DNA of 64,000 nt from a virus (Duplodnaviria; Heunggongvirae; Uroviricota; Caudoviricetes). Shown piece after piece: positions 50,854 through 58,067 of this stretch. Positions within the stretch are counted from its first letter, which is position 1; each line of letters starts with the position of its first letter. The DNA lies in the IMG/VR virus record IMGVR_UViG_2880389630_000005; one strand, written 5' to 3'. Made by a program: the position numbers and the translations under genes. The notes below the pieces were generated by a model that worked only from the letters and a program-made list of their open reading frames with translations, ran no database searches and was not told the origin of the DNA.

Positions 50854-51022
50854 CGTCTTCTTCCTCGTACATTGAGCTATTCGGATCGCTCATCAGTTCT
50901 GCGCAGCAATCGGAGCACACGTGAACTTCCAGCACATGCAGCTTCTGACCGCAGTTAGCGCACGTTAAAGCTCGCTCGACGCTTTCTTTCTGGTATTGGA
51001 GGGATTGGGATGGGCTAAGCAT
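50843..51022 (-). CDS. ninF: NinF
   Basis: 59-aa ORF found by hand translation (below ORF-track cutoff): [36 protein letters not shown]... matches lambda NinF. Confidence 0.7.
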   Translation of the reverse strand: MLSPSQSLQYQKESVERALTCANCGQKLHVLEVHVCSDCCAELMSDPNSSMYEEEDDGD

Positions 51023-51386
51023 TATTGGCGTCCTGAATCATGAGAAAGACAATCATGGCGGCGCGGAGGGGATTTTCATGTATAGCTCGCTTAGATTTAC
51101 AGTAGGCCACACCGCGTGCACCCCACTCGTCTTCATCGAGATTGATAATGCTAATCCTGTATTTTTCAATAATCGGCCATGCGTCTGCTGGGTTTGCGCA
51201 TGGGTTAAAGGATCCGCGCTCAACTTCTACTTCAACTGCGTCTCCGTTTACAATGTCTCCCTCAAATGAGATAAACACCATCGCGCCATTCTCACCTTCT
51301 TTGTAATCCGGTGATCCGTTATGAATGGCTTCGAATACCGCCACGTTAATTTCAAAATCACTTAACTGTGAATAATCCATTGTCAT
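51015..51386 (-). CDS. hypothetical protein (NinX-like position)
   Basis: 123 aa between ninE and ninF, where P22 carries ninX. Confidence 0.4.
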
Positions 51387-51559
51387 TTCCTAGCACGATG
51401 TCTTAGCCACCGGATATCCCACAGGTGAGCCGTGTAATTGAATGTTTTTACGTCAGATTCTTTTGGGATTGGCTTGCGTTTATTTCTGGAGCGTTTCGTT
51501 GGAAGGTATTTGCAGTTTTCGCAGATGATGTCGGTGAAACTTCGTCGCTGTCGCCTCAT
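51383..51559 (-). CDS. ninE: NinE
   Basis: Starts at internal Met; [53 protein letters not shown] matches lambda NinE. Confidence 0.8.
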
Positions 51560-51996
51560 GCCGCCCTGTCTCCCCATCTCGCTTTCCACTCCAGAGCCAG
51601 TCGCGCTTCGTCTGACCACTTAACGCCACGTTCTGTACCGAATGCCTGTATAAGCTCTAATAGCTCCGCAAATTCGCTTACACGCATCCTGCTGGTTGAC
51701 TGGCCTATTACCACAAAGCCATTCCCGGCAAGGTTAGGAACAACGTCCTGCTGCTTTAATGCTGCGGTAAACACACACTTCCAGCTTTCTGCATCCAGCC
51801 AGCGACCATGCCATTCAACCTGACGAGAGACGTCACCTAAGCAGGCCCATAGCTTCCTGTTTTGGTCTAAGCTGCGGTTGCGTTCCTGAATGGTTACTAC
51901 GATTGGTTTGGTTGGGTCTGGAAGGATTTGCTGTACTGCGTGAATAGCGTTTTGCTGATGTGCTGGAGATCGAATTTCAAAGGTTAGTTTTTTCAT
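51556..51996 (-). CDS. ninB: recombination protein NinB (Orf)
   Basis: Starts at internal Met ([31 protein letters not shown]...); matches lambda NinB. Confidence 0.85.
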
Positions 51997-52073
51997 GACT
52001 TCCCTCTCCCCCAAATAAAAAGGCCTGCGATTACCAGCAGGCCTGTTATTAGCTCAGTGATGTAGATGGTCAT

Positions 52074-53954
52074 TTAATACTCCGTCACGTTTTCCTGTCG
52101 CCACGCCTCGTCATATTCCGATTTCGGCATATTGGCGATGTAGCTATATGGCGATCCTGATTCAAGTTGCAGGAACTGGTGCGATTGCTCGTCAAGGAAC
52201 AACGGGACACCACCTTCCCAACCTTCGCCGTTACGTTGCTTTTCAAGCATCAAAACAGATGCCGGAGATGCCAGTAGCTGTTCGTCCTTCTCTGACATCT
52301 TTTCACCACTCTGAACTCTCTGTAACGCTCTCTCGCGAGCCTTGTTACGCCAGATGATAAAAAGGTTGTCTGTCAGGTCTGTTATCGCTCCAGAGCCTTT
52401 TACGTCCATTTTCCCGGTTGGTTTTTCTTCGCTATCTCCTTTTCTGGAGTGAGTAACGAGAATGACGTGGGAGTTTGTTTTGTTTTTGAAGTCACAAATC
52501 GAGTCAACAAATGCTTTCTGCCCGTTATAGTCATCGTCACCTATGCCGCATTTCATCAGGCTGTCGATGATGAATAACTGGATCCCGTATCGGCGGCGAG
52601 CGTAGTCGAATATTTCGATCAGCCTGTCGGCTTTCGCCGTTCCGGTCAGACCAAACACCCAAAGTCTCTCGTCATAAAATTTAAATGCAGAGTCAATTTC
52701 CAGCACTGGCGGCATCTTGCAGCACGTCGCCTGACGGGTAAGGCGCTTAAGGAGAATACCAGGCTTCAGCTCAAGTGACGCGATGCACGTCTTCACACCC
52801 TGACGCATTGCCTCAAGTGCCATATGCCCGACAACCTCCGTTTTTCCGTGACCGTTCACACCATTGACCAGCGTCAACTCGGCCTCACGGAACTGGAATT
52901 TATCTGCCAGAGATTCCCACGGTGGATTAAACAGATACTGCTGCTTGCCGTAGAAAGCGTTGATAGTGTCCTGGTAAAACTCTCGCGCGCTGTAGAGTTC
53001 TTCAGGATCGAAGTAGGATGCCGTGCCGATGTACTGCCAGATTTCATCCTCGGTAACACCGTTCATCAGGCATTCGTTGATGTCTTTGTACGGCAGAGTA
53101 ACAAGACGGCAACGATGTTCACCGAGTCGGCTTGCGATTTCCCTTGCGGCTTCACGACCAACATCATCAACGTCCATCGAGATGAATATTTCCTCAAACC
53201 TGTCGAGGTTGTGATACTCAAACTCAATCCACTGTTGCTTAGCGCCTTTCCCGCCACCAAACGGCACGGATAACGCCGAGATGCCGTATTGCGCATAGCT
53301 CATACAATCAATTTCGCCTTCGCAAAGTACAACCGCCCTCACGCCAGCGTCCAGAGCCTGCCATCCAAACAGACAAGGTTCGCAATCACCTTCTGCCATA
53401 ATGACTTTCTTCCCGTCCGGTCGCTCAGTGCTGATTCGCTTGACCTGCAACAACTCACCATCGCGTTTGTACGGAAGCACCAGTGCATCAAGTTCTCGTT
53501 CTCCATTCCACACCTTGCCGCTGACAACCTCGTAGCGCTTTACGACTTCTGGCGATATGCCACGCGATTGCAGGTACTCAAGATGGGATTCTGTTCTGGT
53601 AACGTAGCGGGCGATTTTCTTGCGGTCAGGTCTGGAGAATTTCTTCTCACGTTTGGCATCGAAATGGTGATCGTCATCCTTGATTCCGAGAAAGGCTTTC
53701 GCTTCCTGCATAGCCTGATGCAGGTTAATTCCACGACATGCCATCCACAAATCAAGCATGTCACCGCCGTCTCCCTCAGCGAAATCAGCCCATTTTTTCT
53801 TGCCGCTAAGGTTGACCTTAAGGCTGTTTCCCTTGTCACCGTTGACGTTACCGGCAACCCACTCATGCCCCTCTCTCTTGCCGTTTGGCAACAGGTGCGG
53901 AGCCACCCTGTCAACCTGCGCCCAAAGCAGGTCACTGAGTTCACTTGGAGTCAT
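52074..53954 (-). CDS. bifunctional DNA primase/replicative helicase
   Basis: 626 aa; central Toprim-like acidic cluster; C-terminal Walker A GVNGHGKT and RecA-like helicase features. Confidence 0.7.
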   Translation of the reverse strand: MTPSELSDLLWAQVDRVAPHLLPNGKREGHEWVAGNVNGDKGNSLKVNLSGKKKWADFAEGDGGDMLDLWMACRGINLHQAMQEAKAFLGIKDDDHHFDAKREKKFSRPDRKKIARYVTRTESHLEYLQSRGISPEVVKRYEVVSGKVWNGERELDALVLPYKRDGELLQVKRISTERPDGKKVIMAEGDCEPCLFGWQALDAGVRAVVLCEGEIDCMSYAQYGISALSVPFGGGKGAKQQWIEFEYHNLDRFEEIFISMDVDDVGREAAREIASRLGEHRCRLVTLPYKDINECLMNGVTEDEIWQYIGTASYFDPEELYSAREFYQDTINAFYGKQQYLFNPPWESLADKFQFREAELTLVNGVNGHGKTEVVGHMALEAMRQGVKTCIASLELKPGILLKRLTRQATCCKMPPVLEIDSAFKFYDERLWVFGLTGTAKADRLIEIFDYARRRYGIQLFIIDSLMKCGIGDDDYNGQKAFVDSICDFKNKTNSHVILVTHSRKGDSEEKPTGKMDVKGSGAITDLTDNLFIIWRNKARERALQRVQSGEKMSEKDEQLLASPASVLMLEKQRNGEGWEGGVPLFLDEQSHQFLQLESGSPYSYIANMPKSEYDEAWRQENVTEY

Positions 53955-54061
53955 GATTCCCTCAGATTGAGATTTTTAAACCAGAAATCGACAAACGAAA
54001 TACTTAACCAGCCGTGGTTATAACCAGCGACCAGTAGCGATTTGATTTTTGATTTCATGGT

Positions 54062-54922
54062 TCACCTGTCGAAAAACACGTAGCCAGTTTTCGATACGGT
54101 GATTGCGGATGATGGTTTGGATTGTGGTTGAATAGTTTCTGGCTTCTCGTCGTTCCAGCGCTGACCGTTCAGGTAGCTCGATGGTAACAACCTGTCGAAT
54201 CCGAACTGCTTACCATTCCTGCATGCGATGTCTTCTGCCAGCATCGTGGCAAACTCGCTTGCCGTACCCCTGGTAGTTTTACGCCATTCCCTGAACTGTG
54301 TTCTGAATGCCGAAGCTGCGTTTTTCTTCCCGGCTTTCCGCATGCCTGCACACCAGAATATTTCCTCGAATGCCTTGTCGGTTTCTTGGTGACGGTCAGA
54401 TGATTTTTCACACTCCGTCCGAACACTTTCGGACATAGTGTTTTTATTATTTCTTTTTTCTTTTGTAATAGTTTCTTTTGTGTGTCCCTGTTTTGGTGAC
54501 AGCGCTGTCACCGTTTTGGTGACACTTTTTGTCACCAATGCAGTGACATTATCACCAGAGTAGTGACACCCTTCGATTTGCCATTCTTCGATGTTCTTGT
54601 TAGGCCCGATTTGCTGGCCTTCGCGAAGGATAACCTTCATCGCGATAAGCTCATTCTTGGCCTTGTTTACCTTCTGTCTTGGCAGCCTGGTAATTTGAGC
54701 TAACTGACTATCAGAGATGCGATCCATCTTTTTACCGTAGCCGTATGTTTTACGGCATATGGCGTGGGCAACCTTGCTCTGATTTTTCGTTAAATCTGCG
54801 CCGATAAGCTCTTCATACAGGGCATTTGCAAGACGGGTATAACCATCTTCAACTTCTGCCACACGACGCTCCACAGGCCGTTGTGAAGGCCTTAAATGTG
54901 TTACGGTTGCAAGATTACTCAT
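54062..54922 (-). CDS. replication initiator (lambda O-like N-terminal domain)
   Basis: 286 aa; N-terminal segment (GADLTK.Q.KV...RKTYG...MDRI.DSQL..IT.LP...GPNKNI.EW) similar to lambda O; iterons inside the gene. Confidence 0.7.
54470..54575. repeat. replication origin iterons within the O-like gene
   Basis: Repeated GGTGACA/TGTCACC half-sites (GGTGACAGCGCTGTCACC, GGTGACACTTTTTGTCACC, ...) next to an AT-rich stretch (about 54420-54470). Confidence 0.6.
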
Positions 54923-55061
54923 GACCTTTCTCCTTCTGCATCAGCTTCACTTTTTCCAACTCAGCCCGGAATCGACCAGGCTGCTTGAAGCTGGACAGGA
55001 AGCGATCACGTAGTATGTGTTTGTGAATTTTGTCCTGGTAAGGACTGAGTTGTTTTGTCAT
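54915..55061 (-). CDS. small hypothetical ORF between cII and O-like gene
   Basis: 48-aa ORF found by hand translation ([21 protein letters not shown]...), overlapping the initiator start. Confidence 0.25.
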
Positions 55062-55095
55062 AATTACTCCTGTGGATTGATCCAGTCTTTCTACA

Positions 55096-55377
55096 TCAGG
55101 CCTCGAAGAATTCGCCGTTCTTCGGGGCTTTTTCTTTTGTCAGGTAATTGGCAAGCCGCTTAGTCAATTCAGCCATTTCATCGTCTTCGATTCCGTATTC
55201 CAGAACAGCCAGCATCATGCTTACCTGCGAGAAGAAACCATTCTTCCATCGGCTTACCTGATATTCAGGAACCCCCATTGCTCGAGCGAATGTCTTCTGC
55301 CCCATCAGTGCCAGTTTGTTCAGCAAGGCTGACTCGATGCGAGCCGCTTTCTTGCTTTTAGTTGCAATAGTACCCAT
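55096..55377 (-). CDS. cII: transcriptional activator CII
   Basis: 93 aa; RIESALLNK...SRWK...SMLLAVLE motifs as in lambda CII. Confidence 0.75.
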
Positions 55378-55453
55378 AGATAATTTCCTTAATGATTAGA
55401 TAGAGTTGGCTTCGCAAAGAAACGCAAAACCATAGAGATTTGTTTCTGGTAAT

Positions 55454-55485
55454 GCCCTTTTTCAGGGCTGTGATGTGTAAGAGCT
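55454..55485 (-). promoter_or_regulatory. nutR (boxA and boxB)
   Basis: On - strand boxA-like AGCTCTTA followed by boxB hairpin GCCCTGAAAAAGGGC, just downstream of cro. Confidence 0.55.
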
Positions 55486-55493
55486 AGAATGTC

Positions 55494-55709
55494 TTAAGCG
55501 GCTTTGTGTTCCGGCGGGAACACGTCATCAAGACTGACTTTTGCGCCTAACTTGTTTAGGCACTCAACAAGAGCACGGCATGTTTTAAGGTCTGGGAAGC
55601 GACGACCAGATTCCCAATGTCCGATAGCTCCCTGTGTGCATCCAACTGCCTTAGCAAGTGTTGTTTGAGAGATATTCAGTGACTCTCGATATTTTCGTAG
55701 GTTGCTCAT
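55494..55709 (-). CDS. cro: Cro-type HTH repressor
   Basis: 71 aa from internal Met (MSNLRKYRESLNISQTTLAKAVGCTQGAIGHWESG...); HTH; divergent from cI. Confidence 0.7.
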   Translation of the reverse strand: MSNLRKYRESLNISQTTLAKAVGCTQGAIGHWESGRRFPDLKTCRALVECLNKLGAKVSLDDVFPPEHKAA

Positions 55710-55820
55710 ATGCCCTCCATAGTAACCATGAAATAATAATACGATATGTACTTTTAGAATGCAAACAAAAAATACATCTTGTGCATGGATGGTTTTAGTA
55801 CAGAGCGTAATAATAAGGGT
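55710..55820. promoter_or_regulatory. immunity control region (OR operators, pR, pRM)
   Basis: About 110-bp AT-rich divergent intergenic region between cro and cI; operators not individually resolved. Confidence 0.5.
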
Positions 55821-56480
55821 ATGAAAATGAAATGGTATGAACTGGCTAGATCCAGAATGAAAGAGCTCGGCATAACTCAAGAGAAGTTAGCTGAAGAGCT
55901 TGGTATGACGCAGGGTGGAATTGGTCACTGGTTGCGCGGATCTCGTCATCCATCTCTTGACGAGATTGGTGTGGTGTTTAAATACCTTGGTATTGATAAC
56001 GTCTCATTCAACCACGACGGTACATTTTCACCTGTTGGCGAATACTCATCTGCCCCCGTTAAAAAACAATATGAGTACCCTGTTTTTTCTCATGTTCAGG
56101 CCGGGATGTTCTCGCCTGAACTTAGAACCTTTACCAAAGGTGATGCGGAGAGATGGGTCAGCACAACCAAAAAAGCCAGTGATTGTGCGTTCTGGCTTGA
56201 AGTTGAAGGTAATTCCATGACCGCGCCAACAGGATCCAAGCCAAGCTTTCCTGACGGGATGTTAATTCTCGTTGACCCTGAGCAGGCTGTTGAGCCAGGT
56301 GATTTCTGCATAGCCAGACTTGGTGGTGACGAGTTTACCTTCAAGAAACTGATCAGGGATAGCGGTCAGGTGTTCCTACATCCACTAAACCCGCAATATC
56401 CAATGATCCCATGCAATGATAGCTGTTCCGTTGTAGGGAAAGTTATCGCCAGCCAGTGGCCTGAAGAGACATTTAGTTAA
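55821..56480 (+). CDS. cI: CI repressor (HTH plus LexA-like S24 peptidase domain)
   Basis: About 219 aa; N-terminal HTH; C-terminal GNSM...Ser/Lys autocleavage domain motifs; start may be the ATG 6 nt downstream. Confidence 0.8.
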
Positions 56481-56512
56481 CAGCCTCACCACTCTAAAGC
56501 ACACAACAATAA

Positions 56513-56540
56513 CCCGACCTTAGTGTCGGGTTTTCTTTTT
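56513..56540 (+). terminator. rho-independent terminator after cI
   Basis: CCCGACC-TTAGT-GTCGGG followed by TTTTCTTTTT. Confidence 0.6.
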
Positions 56541-56605
56541 CCAAAATATAAACCCATTAAATACAAAGCGTTATAAAAAACCAATTATATTTAGAACATT
56601 TTGTA

Positions 56606-56634
56606 TTGACTCGATAAAGTACAAATCGTACTAT
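56606..56634 (+). promoter_or_regulatory. candidate pL promoter (with OL)
   Basis: TTGACT -35 and TACTAT -10 with 17-bp spacer; GTACAAATCGTAC dyad overlaps; upstream of nutL and N. Confidence 0.45.
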
Positions 56635-56673
56635 TTAGCCATCAGCAGGACGCACTGACCACCATGAAGGTGA

Positions 56674-56704
56674 GGCTCTTAAAAATTTAGCCCTGAAGAA
56701 GGGC
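56674..56704 (+). promoter_or_regulatory. nutL (boxA and boxB)
   Basis: boxA-like GGCTCTTA and boxB hairpin GCCCTGAAGAAGGGC, identical to lambda nutL boxB. Confidence 0.7.
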
Positions 56705-56814
56705 AGCATTCAAAGCAGAAAGCTTTGAGTAGCGCGAAATGCAGCTGCAAGACAGCAACCGTGGAGATAAGCATCACGGCGCGTTACTCAAAGCTAACTG
56801 ACAGGAGAATCCGG

Positions 56815-57141
56815 ATGGATGCACAAACACGCCGCCGCGAACGTCGCGCAGAGAAACAGGCTCAATGGAAAGCAGCAAATCCCCTGTTAGTTGGGGTAAG
56901 CGCAAAACCAGTTAACCGCCCTATTCTCTCGCTGAATCGCAAACCGAAATCACGAGTAGAAAGCGCACTGAATCCGATAGACCTTACGGTGCTGGCTGAA
57001 TACCACGAACAGATTGAAAGCAACCTGCAGCGTATTGAGCGCAAGAATCAGCGCACATGGTACAGCAAGCCACGTAGTGAAATGGGTGTGACTTGTGTTG
57101 GTCGCCAGAAAATGAAATTAGGCAGCAAACCACTTATTTGA
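56815..57141 (+). CDS. N: antitermination protein N
   Basis: Starts at internal Met; MDAQTRRRERRAEKQAQWKAANPLLVGVSAKPVNRPILSLNRKPKSRVESALNPIDLTVLAEYH matches lambda N. Confidence 0.85.
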   Translation: MDAQTRRRERRAEKQAQWKAANPLLVGVSAKPVNRPILSLNRKPKSRVESALNPIDLTVLAEYHEQIESNLQRIERKNQRTWYSKPRSEMGVTCVGRQKMKLGSKPLI

Positions 57142-57152
57142 GAGGAATTAAT

Positions 57153-57776
57153 ATGTCATCAATCCGCTTAACTACGAGAATGAAAGAGGAAATCGCTCGT
57201 AACGCTTTAATTAAGTCTGGGGTTTTCACTGAACTTAAAGAAGTAACAAAGTTAAAGAACCAGCTTGCACTTGACGCCAGAGTTATTGCGTTTGGCGGTA
57301 AAAAGAAAACTGAGGAAGTGGAACAGTTATCATCCAAGTTAGTAGCTATAAGTGAAGAACTTGAAAAAATGGGATGTTCATTTTACTCACGCGATGTTCG
57401 TTCTACATCAATTTATCTGACTGTATCTGGCAGAAGGGTTGGATGGCTTTCATATGGGAAAGACGGCAACGGTGAAGATATATTGCTCCCTACTCCGACC
57501 AAAGATAAATGCATGTTTGACGCAGAACACGAAATAACAAAAAGGTTTGATGAAATCTGCGCATTGCAACAAAACCTTGAAGCCTTGAAAAAGGATATCG
57601 AATCAAATGTATGGGCTGCTTTGAACTCAGTCACAACAGTTAAGCGACTTATTGAAGTTTGGCCTGAAAGCAAAGAATTGCTACCAAAAGAAGAAGATAA
57701 AGCAAGTACAGCACTTCCTGCTTTACGGGTAGAAGATTTGAATAAGATGATTGGACTTCCTTCCGAGGCCGCATAG
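57153..57776 (+). CDS. hypothetical protein, first ORF of N-cIII accessory block
   Basis: About 207 aa from ATG with GAGGAA RBS; AT-rich; no motif recognised. Confidence 0.4.
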   Translation: MSSIRLTTRMKEEIARNALIKSGVFTELKEVTKLKNQLALDARVIAFGGKKKTEEVEQLSSKLVAISEELEKMGCSFYSRDVRSTSIYLTVSGRRVGWLSYGKDGNGEDILLPTPTKDKCMFDAEHEITKRFDEICALQQNLEALKKDIESNVWAALNSVTTVKRLIEVWPESKELLPKEEDKASTALPALRVEDLNKMIGLPSEAA

Positions 57777-57792
57777 TCGGCCTTTATTTTTG
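57766..57792 (+). terminator. hairpin with T-tract after the 57153 gene
   Basis: AGGCCG-CATAGT-CGGCCT followed by TTATTTTT. Confidence 0.4.
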
Positions 57793-57815
57793 GCATAAAT
57801 ACACAGAGGTGAATA

Positions 57816-58067
57816 ATGACAGCAGGAAGAATGAAAAGGCCATGGAATGTTGTTGGCGCTGGATTTAACGATGATGGGGTTTATTTCACGTTTGACGATA
57901 CAACCATCCATCGAGGTGATGTGAGATTGATGGAGGCAGCTCCTGATTTGCTCGAAGCTCTGCAAGCGATGCTAAACAAGGCATACAAGCAAAACTGGAA
58001 TGACCATTATCCTGATGAAGTATCGAAAGCACAGTCAGCAATCAGCAAAGCCCTTGGAGATGAGTAA
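57816..58067 (+). CDS. hypothetical protein
   Basis: 83 aa; AT-rich. Confidence 0.35.
   Translation: MTAGRMKRPWNVVGAGFNDDGVYFTFDDTTIHRGDVRLMEAAPDLLEALQAMLNKAYKQNWNDHYPDEVSKAQSAISKALGDE

Follow-up and report, generated by a model that had tools for sequence, protein, structure and literature searches.

In the established model of phage lambda replication, the N-terminal domain (N-domain) of the initiator O binds the iterons of the origin and the C-terminal domain (C-domain) of O binds the partner protein. Phage P22, with its genes 18 and 12, as well as phages of Proteus, Erwinia and Klebsiella, combine an O-like initiator containing internal iterons with a phage replicative helicase and have no loader; P22 is said, in work by Wickner from 1984 that PMC8022706 cites, to be a precedent for independence from host DnaB. 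The GenBank record of Salmonella phage ES18 describes gp59 as similar to lambda gpO, marks within gene 59 a rep_origin ('similar to lambda ori') and lists gp61 as a 'putative primase/helicase; similar to phage T7 gene 4'. An 'ES18 DNA replication gene region' comprising an O homologue and a primase-helicase is described in the epsilon34 paper (PMC2629481), and an ES18-type O homologue plus primase-helicase is also found in PMC10307801. Here we describe positions 52,074–54,922 of a 64,000-nucleotide stretch of DNA (the window) from IMG/VR virus record IMGVR_UViG_2880389630_000005, which hold a lambda O-like initiator gene, a 35-amino acid (aa) open reading frame (ORF) and a primase-helicase gene on the minus strand. 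From its sequence, the locus appears to be a replication module of the type first described in ES18, situated in the early-right operon of a lambdoid, P22-like prophage of Escherichia coli.

This module type is already known and annotated, and is real but ordinary; as it has stood in GenBank phage records since 2005, it carries little weight as a discovery. The whole 2,849 bp are 99.2% identical to mEp043, 99.1% to Sf101, 98% to vB_EcoP-720R6 and 91% to Salmonella phage SEN22. The modules of mEp043, Sf101 and vB_EcoP-720R6 differ from that of the window by few substitutions and contain all three of its ORFs as well as its iterons and AT-rich stretch; their records name the genes ('DNA replication protein O', 'DNA primase/helicase' or 'toprim domain-containing protein') and leave the origin unannotated. 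The module is present in 297 of 5,426 complete E. coli genomes (about 5%), where the Prokaryotic Genome Annotation Pipeline (PGAP) assigns the labels 'toprim domain-containing protein' and 'replication protein'. From the C-domain of the initiator to the helicase, the identity is 96–98% in several Shiga toxin 2a (Stx2a) phages and 88% in ES18, epsilon34, g341c and vB_SosS_Oslo. Indeed, ES18 genes 59-60-61, as well as epsilon34 genes 50–52 and their counterparts in g341c and vB_SosS_Oslo, encode the same C-domain, 35-aa ORF and primase-helicase, with the 88% nucleotide identity of ES18 extending over the 3' half of gene 59 and genes 60 and 61, and with 94% amino-acid identity for the helicase. 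ES18 differs in having a lambda-type N-domain together with TCCCTC/GAGGGA iterons, in contrast to the TGTCACC/GGTGACA iterons of the window. The 'non-lambdoid' replication types Eru1–3 of Stx phages (PMC8044961) were also considered and represent different modules, none of which is listed as a single Toprim-plus-helicase fusion. Our literature searches returned no experimental study of the mechanism of this module type. The genes of the module and the two parts of the initiator gene are as follows:

54062–54922, minus strand: lambda O-like initiator gene, 286 aa (ORF list, Pfam, TIGR01610, PHROG)
54581–54865, minus strand: part encoding the putative origin-binding N-domain core, aa 20–114 (Phage_rep_O match)
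54065–54454, minus strand: part encoding the O C-domain, aa 157–286, unrelated to the P-binding C-domain of lambda O
53951–54058, minus strand: 35-aa ORF (PHROG 21848; equivalent of ES18 gp60)
52074–53954, minus strand: primase-helicase gene, 626 aa (ORF list, Pfam, PHROG 239, matches to T7 gp4 and Twinkle)

The initiator is a two-domain protein, with an N-domain homologous to that of lambda O. Residues 20–114 cover the full Pfam profile of the winged-helix origin-binding domain Phage_rep_O (PF04492, positions 1–95 of 95) with an E value of 1e-37 and 128.8 bits, as compared to a cut-off of 28.7. In addition, TIGR01610 (phage_O_Nterm) matches the initiator with 105 bits (cut-off 45.5), as do PHROGs 277 and 2365, which are named 'replication initiation O-like'. 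Direct comparison with lambda O aa 1–155 yields 49% identity, bearing out the lambda O-like N-domain that an earlier note on this DNA had read from the sequence. Beyond residue 157, the direct comparison reveals no similarity to the lambda O C-terminus; the C-domain of the initiator matches PHROGs 33384, 270, 9474 and 9327, whereas those matched by the lambda O C-terminus form a disjoint set. Pfam yields nothing for the C-terminal 130 residues, even at E values up to 10, and a sequence search of the PDB finds no solved relative of the initiator. We presume that the C-domain is the part that recruits the helicase.

A putative origin, comprising four iterons, an AT-rich stretch and a palindrome, lies inside the initiator's own gene:

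54550–54568, coding strand TGTCACTACTCTGGTGATA: iteron 1, with a start-to-start distance of 20 bp to iteron 2, equal to that from lambda ITN1 to ITN2
54530–54548, TGTCACTGCATTGGTGACA: iteron 2, starting 24 bp before iteron 3, as in lambda
54506–54524, TGTCACCAAAACGGTGACA: iteron 3, a perfect dyad with 0 mismatches and lambda's AAAAC spacer
54483–54501, TGTCACCAAAACAGGGACA: iteron 4, with 2 mismatches
54441–54482: AT-rich stretch, presumed DNA-unwinding element and junction of two half-modules (composition, likeness to lambda)
54410–54441: 32-bp palindrome with 14-nucleotide arms and a 4-nucleotide centre, right of the AT-rich stretch (inverted-repeat search)

The pattern TGTCACC-N5-GGTGACA, allowing up to 3 mismatches, has 10 matches in the window against 2.05 expected, a number reached in 0 of 100 shuffles, and the four best matches (0–2 mismatches) are the neighbouring 19-bp units at 54483–54568. 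The iteron starts are spaced 20, 24 and 23 bp apart in the coding direction, which is exactly the spacing of lambda ITN1–4 (39034/39054/39078/39101), and lambda's AAAAC spacer is present in two of the four units. Starting at the right arm of iteron 4 and continuing into the flank, the sequence is almost that of lambda ITN4 and its own flank, reading CAAAACAGGGACACACAAAAGAAACTATTACAAAAGAAAAAAGAAA in the window and CAAAACAGGGGGACACAAAAGACACTATTACAAAAGAAAAAAGAAA in lambda. The adjoining AT-rich stretch is likewise near-identical to the AT-rich region of lambda; it is 83% A+T, with 71% A on the coding strand, and only 0.06% of the 40-mers in the window match its AT-richness. The palindrome presumably sits where the right-hand ori palindrome of lambda lies, and is common to ES18 and phi24B, so that it belongs to the half of the module that comprises the C-domain and helicase. 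Overall, the window resembles lambda O/ori/P in its homologous N-domain, its four 19-bp dyad iterons and their spacing, its AT-rich stretch and the placement of the origin within the initiator gene, but is distinct from lambda in its iteron sequence and its unrelated C-domain, and in having a primase-helicase in place of the P loader.

Iterons next to an AT-rich stretch within the initiator coding sequence, as in lambda, had been proposed in the earlier note, and the shared 20/24/23 geometry agrees with this. The repeats that it described as GGTGACA/TGTCACC dyads are indeed present, but their register needs correction, since these dyads are the junctions between neighbouring TGTCACC...GGTGACA iterons, as in lambda. 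For the DNA between iterons 2 and 3, a greedy dyad finder likewise settles on GGTGACA-N5-TGTCACC, and it makes this choice in lambda as well; we have therefore set the register by homology to the annotated iterons of lambda and not by symmetry alone. Tandem Repeats Finder reports just short T-rich runs and not the iterons, because the units are dyads with variable gaps. A candidate fifth iteron at 54376–54394 (74% match) was rejected, as it sits in the C-domain half that is common to phages with other iteron types. While the repeats lie within coding sequence and encode a repetitive peptide, it is very improbable that they are a by-product of a peptide linker, rather than protein-binding sites, and that the true origin lies elsewhere. 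The repeats are DNA dyads that are not needed for coding, they agree with the annotated ori iterons of lambda in number, length and 20/24/23 spacing, and they abut an AT-rich stretch homologous to that of lambda. Moreover, relatives at 66–72% nucleotide identity conserve the repeats in their initiator genes, an outcome that does not refute the reading of the earlier note, and keep the DNA dyad while its sequence and the encoded peptide change along with the N-domain.

Comparison across phages reveals two halves of the module that recombine within the AT-rich stretch. For each phage, the first half (N-domain and iterons) and the second half (C-domain and downstream genes) are listed below:

Window, mEp043 and Sf101: this N-domain and TGTCACC iterons; this C-domain, 35-aa ORF and primase-helicase
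PhiR12_1: N-domain and iterons as in the window (99.8% identity as far as position 54450); C-domain of lambda O, with P and ren
ES18: N-domain of lambda with iterons of the lambda type; window-type C-domain, gp60 and primase-helicase
phi24B: an unrelated N-domain and G/C-rich repeats; window-type C-domain, small ORF and primase-helicase
Enterobacter prophage L092: an unrelated N-domain of a fourth type; identities of 45% for the C-domain, 52% for the 35-aa ORF and 59% for the primase-helicase (the latter truncated)
Proteus phage V3: a related N-domain (72% nucleotide identity) and TGTCACC iterons as in the window; a different C-domain with a DnaB-type helicase

The type of iteron follows the N-domain, with TGTCACC/GGTGACA in the window and Proteus V3, TCCCTC/GAGGGA in lambda and ES18, TGTTACC/GGGAACA types in Erwinia and Citrobacter phages and TTAGCC/GGCTAA in a Klebsiella phage. 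In all types compared, which amount to five specificities, the dyad repeats are located at the same place in the initiator gene. The iterons thus move with the N-domain of O, and the C-domain, 35-aa ORF and primase-helicase are inherited as a unit, which is seen behind four different N-domains. Sliding identity profiles against PhiR12_1, ES18 and phi24B switch at gene nucleotides 450–480, which correspond to the AT-rich stretch common to all the phages compared, and the core of this stretch (ACACAAAAGAMACTATT.CAAAAGAAA) is nearly unchanged in lambda, ES18, PhiR12_1 and the window, whereas the sequences on both sides differ. The AT-rich core serves as a homologous crossover point at which the two half-modules are swapped. 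In PhiR12_1, the N-domain and iterons of the window continue up to the AT-rich stretch and are then followed by the lambda O C-domain, P and ren, a chimera from which it follows that the two half-modules are exchangeable. Together, these phages constitute a clean natural swap experiment, in which one and the same half for origin binding is paired with lambda P, a DnaB-type helicase or a gp4-type primase-helicase, and in which the crossover sits in the shared AT-rich stretch. We note that the helicases of P22 and of the Proteus, Erwinia and Klebsiella phages are of the DnaB family and have no primase domain, and that the C-domains of their initiators differ from that of the window.

The 626-aa protein is a T7 gp4-like primase-helicase with a zinc-free version of the primase N-domain, encoded by three parts of the gene:

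53670–53954, minus strand: part encoding a cysteine-free DnaG-type zinc-binding-domain fold, aa 1–95 (AlphaFold2, Foldseek, TIGR01391)
53067–53330, minus strand: part encoding the Toprim domain, aa 209–296 (CEGEID, DVDD, KDINEC)
52173–52892, minus strand: part encoding the superfamily 4 (SF4) helicase domain, aa 355–594 (motif alignment with T7 gp4)

Like T7 gp4 and mitochondrial Twinkle, the protein is a single chain in which a DnaG-type N-domain and Toprim are joined through a linker to a RecA-like SF4 helicase. PHROG 239, 'DNA primase/helicase', matches it from end to end (E 2e-171), and the closest solved proteins identified with phmmer are T7 gp4 (E 3e-23 over aa 192–539) and Twinkle (E 6e-14), with alignments running from Toprim to helicase motif H4. 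Pfam Toprim_2 matches residues 209–296 with an E value of 3e-12 (47 bits against a cut-off of 22.1), and the acidic motifs CEGEID, DVDD and KDINEC align with EGEID, DMDE and KDANEC of T7 gp4, which contain E157, D207/D209 and D237. Within the helicase domain, the RecA-like SF4 motifs H1, H1a, H2, H3, H4 and the arginine finger are all located, comprising Walker A GVNGHGKT, SLE, Walker B LFIIDSL, THSRK, KGSGAITD and KQRNG; the equivalents of T7 K318, E343, D424 and H465 are present, as is the R522-like KQRNG. AAA_25 is matched with 28 bits, barely above its cut-off of 27. Profile hidden Markov models thereby recover primase and helicase domains in the large protein, so the Toprim plus Walker-A helicase fusion that the earlier note placed downstream of the initiator, instead of lambda P, is upheld; no lambda P or DnaB-like helicase gene is detectable anywhere in the window.

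No Pfam match is obtained for the N-terminal 202 residues at E values up to 10. The AlphaFold2 model of the first 95 residues, however, has a predicted local distance difference test score (pLDDT) of about 90 or higher, and Foldseek identifies structures of the DnaG zinc-binding domain as its best matches, namely 2au3 (E 2.5e-5) and 1d0q (template modelling score 0.64, root mean square deviation 3.3 Å). TIGR01391 (dnaG) matches aa 27–143, in agreement with the fold. A34 and V37 stand at the positions of T7 C17 and C20, and aa 1–190 contain a single cysteine, C73. Relatives of the cysteine-free domain keep a motif of their own, LLPNGK..G.EW.AG...G..G.SL...W.DFA.G..GD..DLW, in which E31, W32, G35, D57, G64, D65 and W70 are invariant.

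These features suggest a mechanism that extends the lambda model. Following transcription from pR, dimers of the N-domain would bind the iterons, and the resulting O-some would open the AT-rich stretch by straining it. Possibly with help from the 35-aa peptide, the C-domain would then recruit the phage's own hexameric SF4 helicase to the opened strands, bypassing host DnaB and a loader of the P/DnaC type. The Toprim domain may prime as well, which would also bypass DnaG, and synthesis would be carried out by host DNA polymerase III. O-some formation, opening of the AT-rich stretch, delivery of the helicase by the C-domain and the bypass of DnaB and a DnaC-type loader are modelled on lambda and P22, and independence from host DnaB and DnaC is plausible from family membership; the earlier note had proposed independence from host DnaB loading. 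Recruitment of the primase-helicase by the C-domain is suggested by the inheritance pattern, which fits the lambda model. The origin-binding activity of O resides in its N-terminal 162 aa (PMC2629481). Taken as a whole, an ES18-type lambdoid module with an O-like initiator, an internal origin and a gp4-type primase-helicase that operates in this manner is, in our judgement, the likely explanation of the locus. The origin- and initiator-dependent setting of a temperate phage distinguishes the 626-aa protein from T7 gp4, since the T7 origin is transcription-primed. The same primase-helicase is found in Stx2a-converting phages (phi24B, Min27 and others), and release from host DnaB, DnaC and DnaG, if true, would be relevant to Shiga-toxin phage biology.

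Several observations weigh against this explanation, or against parts of it. Iteron binding, the contact between C-domain and helicase, self-loading of the helicase and independence from DnaB, DnaC and DnaG are all steps that we infer. The DnaB_C profile of Pfam scores 23.8 bits over aa 355–594, which is under its 27-bit gathering cut-off. In IMG/VR, the primase-helicase is the next gene in 79 of 79 loci that have a window-type C-domain and room downstream, and lambda P or a DnaB-like gene is present in none of them, yet these loci are near-identical and do not represent 79 independent observations. Furthermore, a 40%-identical relative (L091; JGI metagenome 3300020801, 3038–5825) is split into two overlapping genes, a primase of 332 aa (Toprim) and a helicase of 287 aa (AAA_25/DnaB_C), and is preceded by an initiator whose C-terminus differs, with the 35-aa ORF missing; the pairing of C-domain and primase-helicase is therefore not universal in the family. 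With respect to priming, none of the four Cys4 zinc ligands is found in the N-terminal fold, as in metazoan Twinkle and unlike T7 gp4, nor are they found in relatives down to 39% identity, in a homologue search with the N-terminal 202 aa that gave mostly fragments, which sufficed to assess the ligands. Because the zinc-binding fold has no Cys/His ligands, priming by the 626-aa protein is uncertain and 'primase' is to be taken as a domain-level label.

This bears directly on an alternative that keeps the anatomy but restricts the 626-aa protein to a helicase function, with a primase half that is catalytically or functionally dead as in metazoan Twinkle and primers supplied by host DnaG or by transcripts of the pR or oop type. 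The zinc-binding domain of T7 gp4 is required for template-directed priming, such that gp4 without it makes no templated primers, and metazoan Twinkle, which also has no zinc ligands, is not an active primase. The retention of the fold with all ligands missing would be consistent with such a helicase-only protein. However, the acidic residues of the Toprim domain (EGEID, DxD and KDxNEC) are all intact, and the strong conservation of the cysteine-free N-domain argues for a retained function, not for decay. We regard the helicase-only alternative as unlikely, although it deserves some weight. Within the preferred explanation, the module might represent a third route of helicase loading at a lambda-type origin, where the C-domain and the 35-aa peptide, itself translationally coupled to the helicase gene, act as a dedicated adaptor that places a self-loading gp4-type helicase on AT-rich DNA opened by the O-some, and where the zinc-free N-domain still primes or docks onto the initiator; we put this forward tentatively and consider it a possibility rather than the expectation.

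The 35-aa ORF, which was absent from the earlier note, probably represents a real gene. It ends in a stop codon that overlaps the start codon of the primase-helicase gene (ATGA), it belongs to PHROG 21848 (E 4e-26), it is annotated as gp60 in ES18, and the Enterobacter prophage carries its 52% identical homologue in the same position. Between the window and phi24B copies, 24 of 105 nucleotides differ, with a ratio of non-synonymous to synonymous differences (pN/pS) of 0.38. NCBIfam has nothing for this ORF, and that it assists in recruiting the helicase is no more than a guess.

Within the window, the module is embedded in an operon that reads from right to left on the minus strand, with the following neighbours:

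Plus strand: N, rightmost in the layout together with cI
55779–56480, plus strand: cI (ORF and domain matches)
Minus-strand order, between cI and cII: cro
55096–55377, minus strand: cII (ORF and Pfam)
54915–55061, minus strand: DUF2740 ORF, 48 aa, of the P22 orf48 type, overlapping the initiator start codon
52021–52044, minus strand: terminator-like hairpin and T-run (AGGCCTGC...GCAGGCCT) between the primase-helicase stop codon and ninB
51556–52014, minus strand: ninB (Pfam NinB)

The module is thus flanked by cII, DUF2740 and NinB, as identified with Pfam, which is the arrangement that ES18-type gene order requires, and the terminator-like hairpin at 52021–52044 occupies a tR2-like position that would close the module downstream. 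The 24 kb around the module show the best likeness to P22-like phages of E. coli and Shigella (such as vB_EcoP-720R6, CUS-3 and Sf101), and several E. coli chromosomes hold the module at 100% identity, the window being chromosomal prophage DNA. As many prophages are defective, and as a truncated copy of the primase-helicase does exist in the Enterobacter prophage, the module could in principle be an inactive remnant that no longer drives replication. We consider this quite improbable, since all three of its ORFs are intact, as are cI, cro, cII, ninB and N on its flanks, and it shares ~99% identity with the isolated phages mEp043 and Sf101 and 98% with vB_EcoP-720R6.

A number of relatives depart from the arrangement seen in the window. 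In the Enterobacter prophage (Logan SRR29942953, 2875–4786), the N-terminus of the initiator starts with MRDYGKVSPHFWIGRTGKELR and has no Pfam hit, and the primase-helicase is truncated to 261 aa; this is probably a decaying prophage. The protein called 'P' in phi24B (L003, 1501–4407; also L015 and L030 of IMG/VR) is the Stx2a-phage allele of the primase-helicase and is 968 aa long. It carries a 342-aa insert with Hint and LAGLIDADG matches inside Walker A (GHGK / ...HN / T) that looks like an intein, and that the allele of the window does not have. Six IMG/VR loci (L039, L042, L058, L073, L081 and L087) contain ~490 bp extra between the initiator and primase-helicase genes, such that the primase-helicase starts at 4971 instead of 4480.

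On the plus strand, a second, strong terminator-like hairpin of 14 pairs followed by a T-run is found at 55098–55140, antisense to the 3' end of cII, which is the position of the terminator of the lambda oop antisense RNA; Rfam reports nothing credible across 51000–58000, including this site. PHROG 1913 names the DUF2740 family 'tail protein', and RefSeq phage records repeat that name, which looks like a mis-annotation given the position of the ORF in the early operon. The mechanical cro ORF at 55494–55880 (minus strand; 128 aa with a TTG start) is almost certainly too long, as Cro of mEp043 is annotated with 231 bp and the helix-turn-helix match begins at residue 60. Two ORFs on the plus strand inside the primase-helicase gene, 53289–54023 (244 aa) and 52824–53273 (149 aa), have most likely arisen by chance on the strand opposite a real gene.

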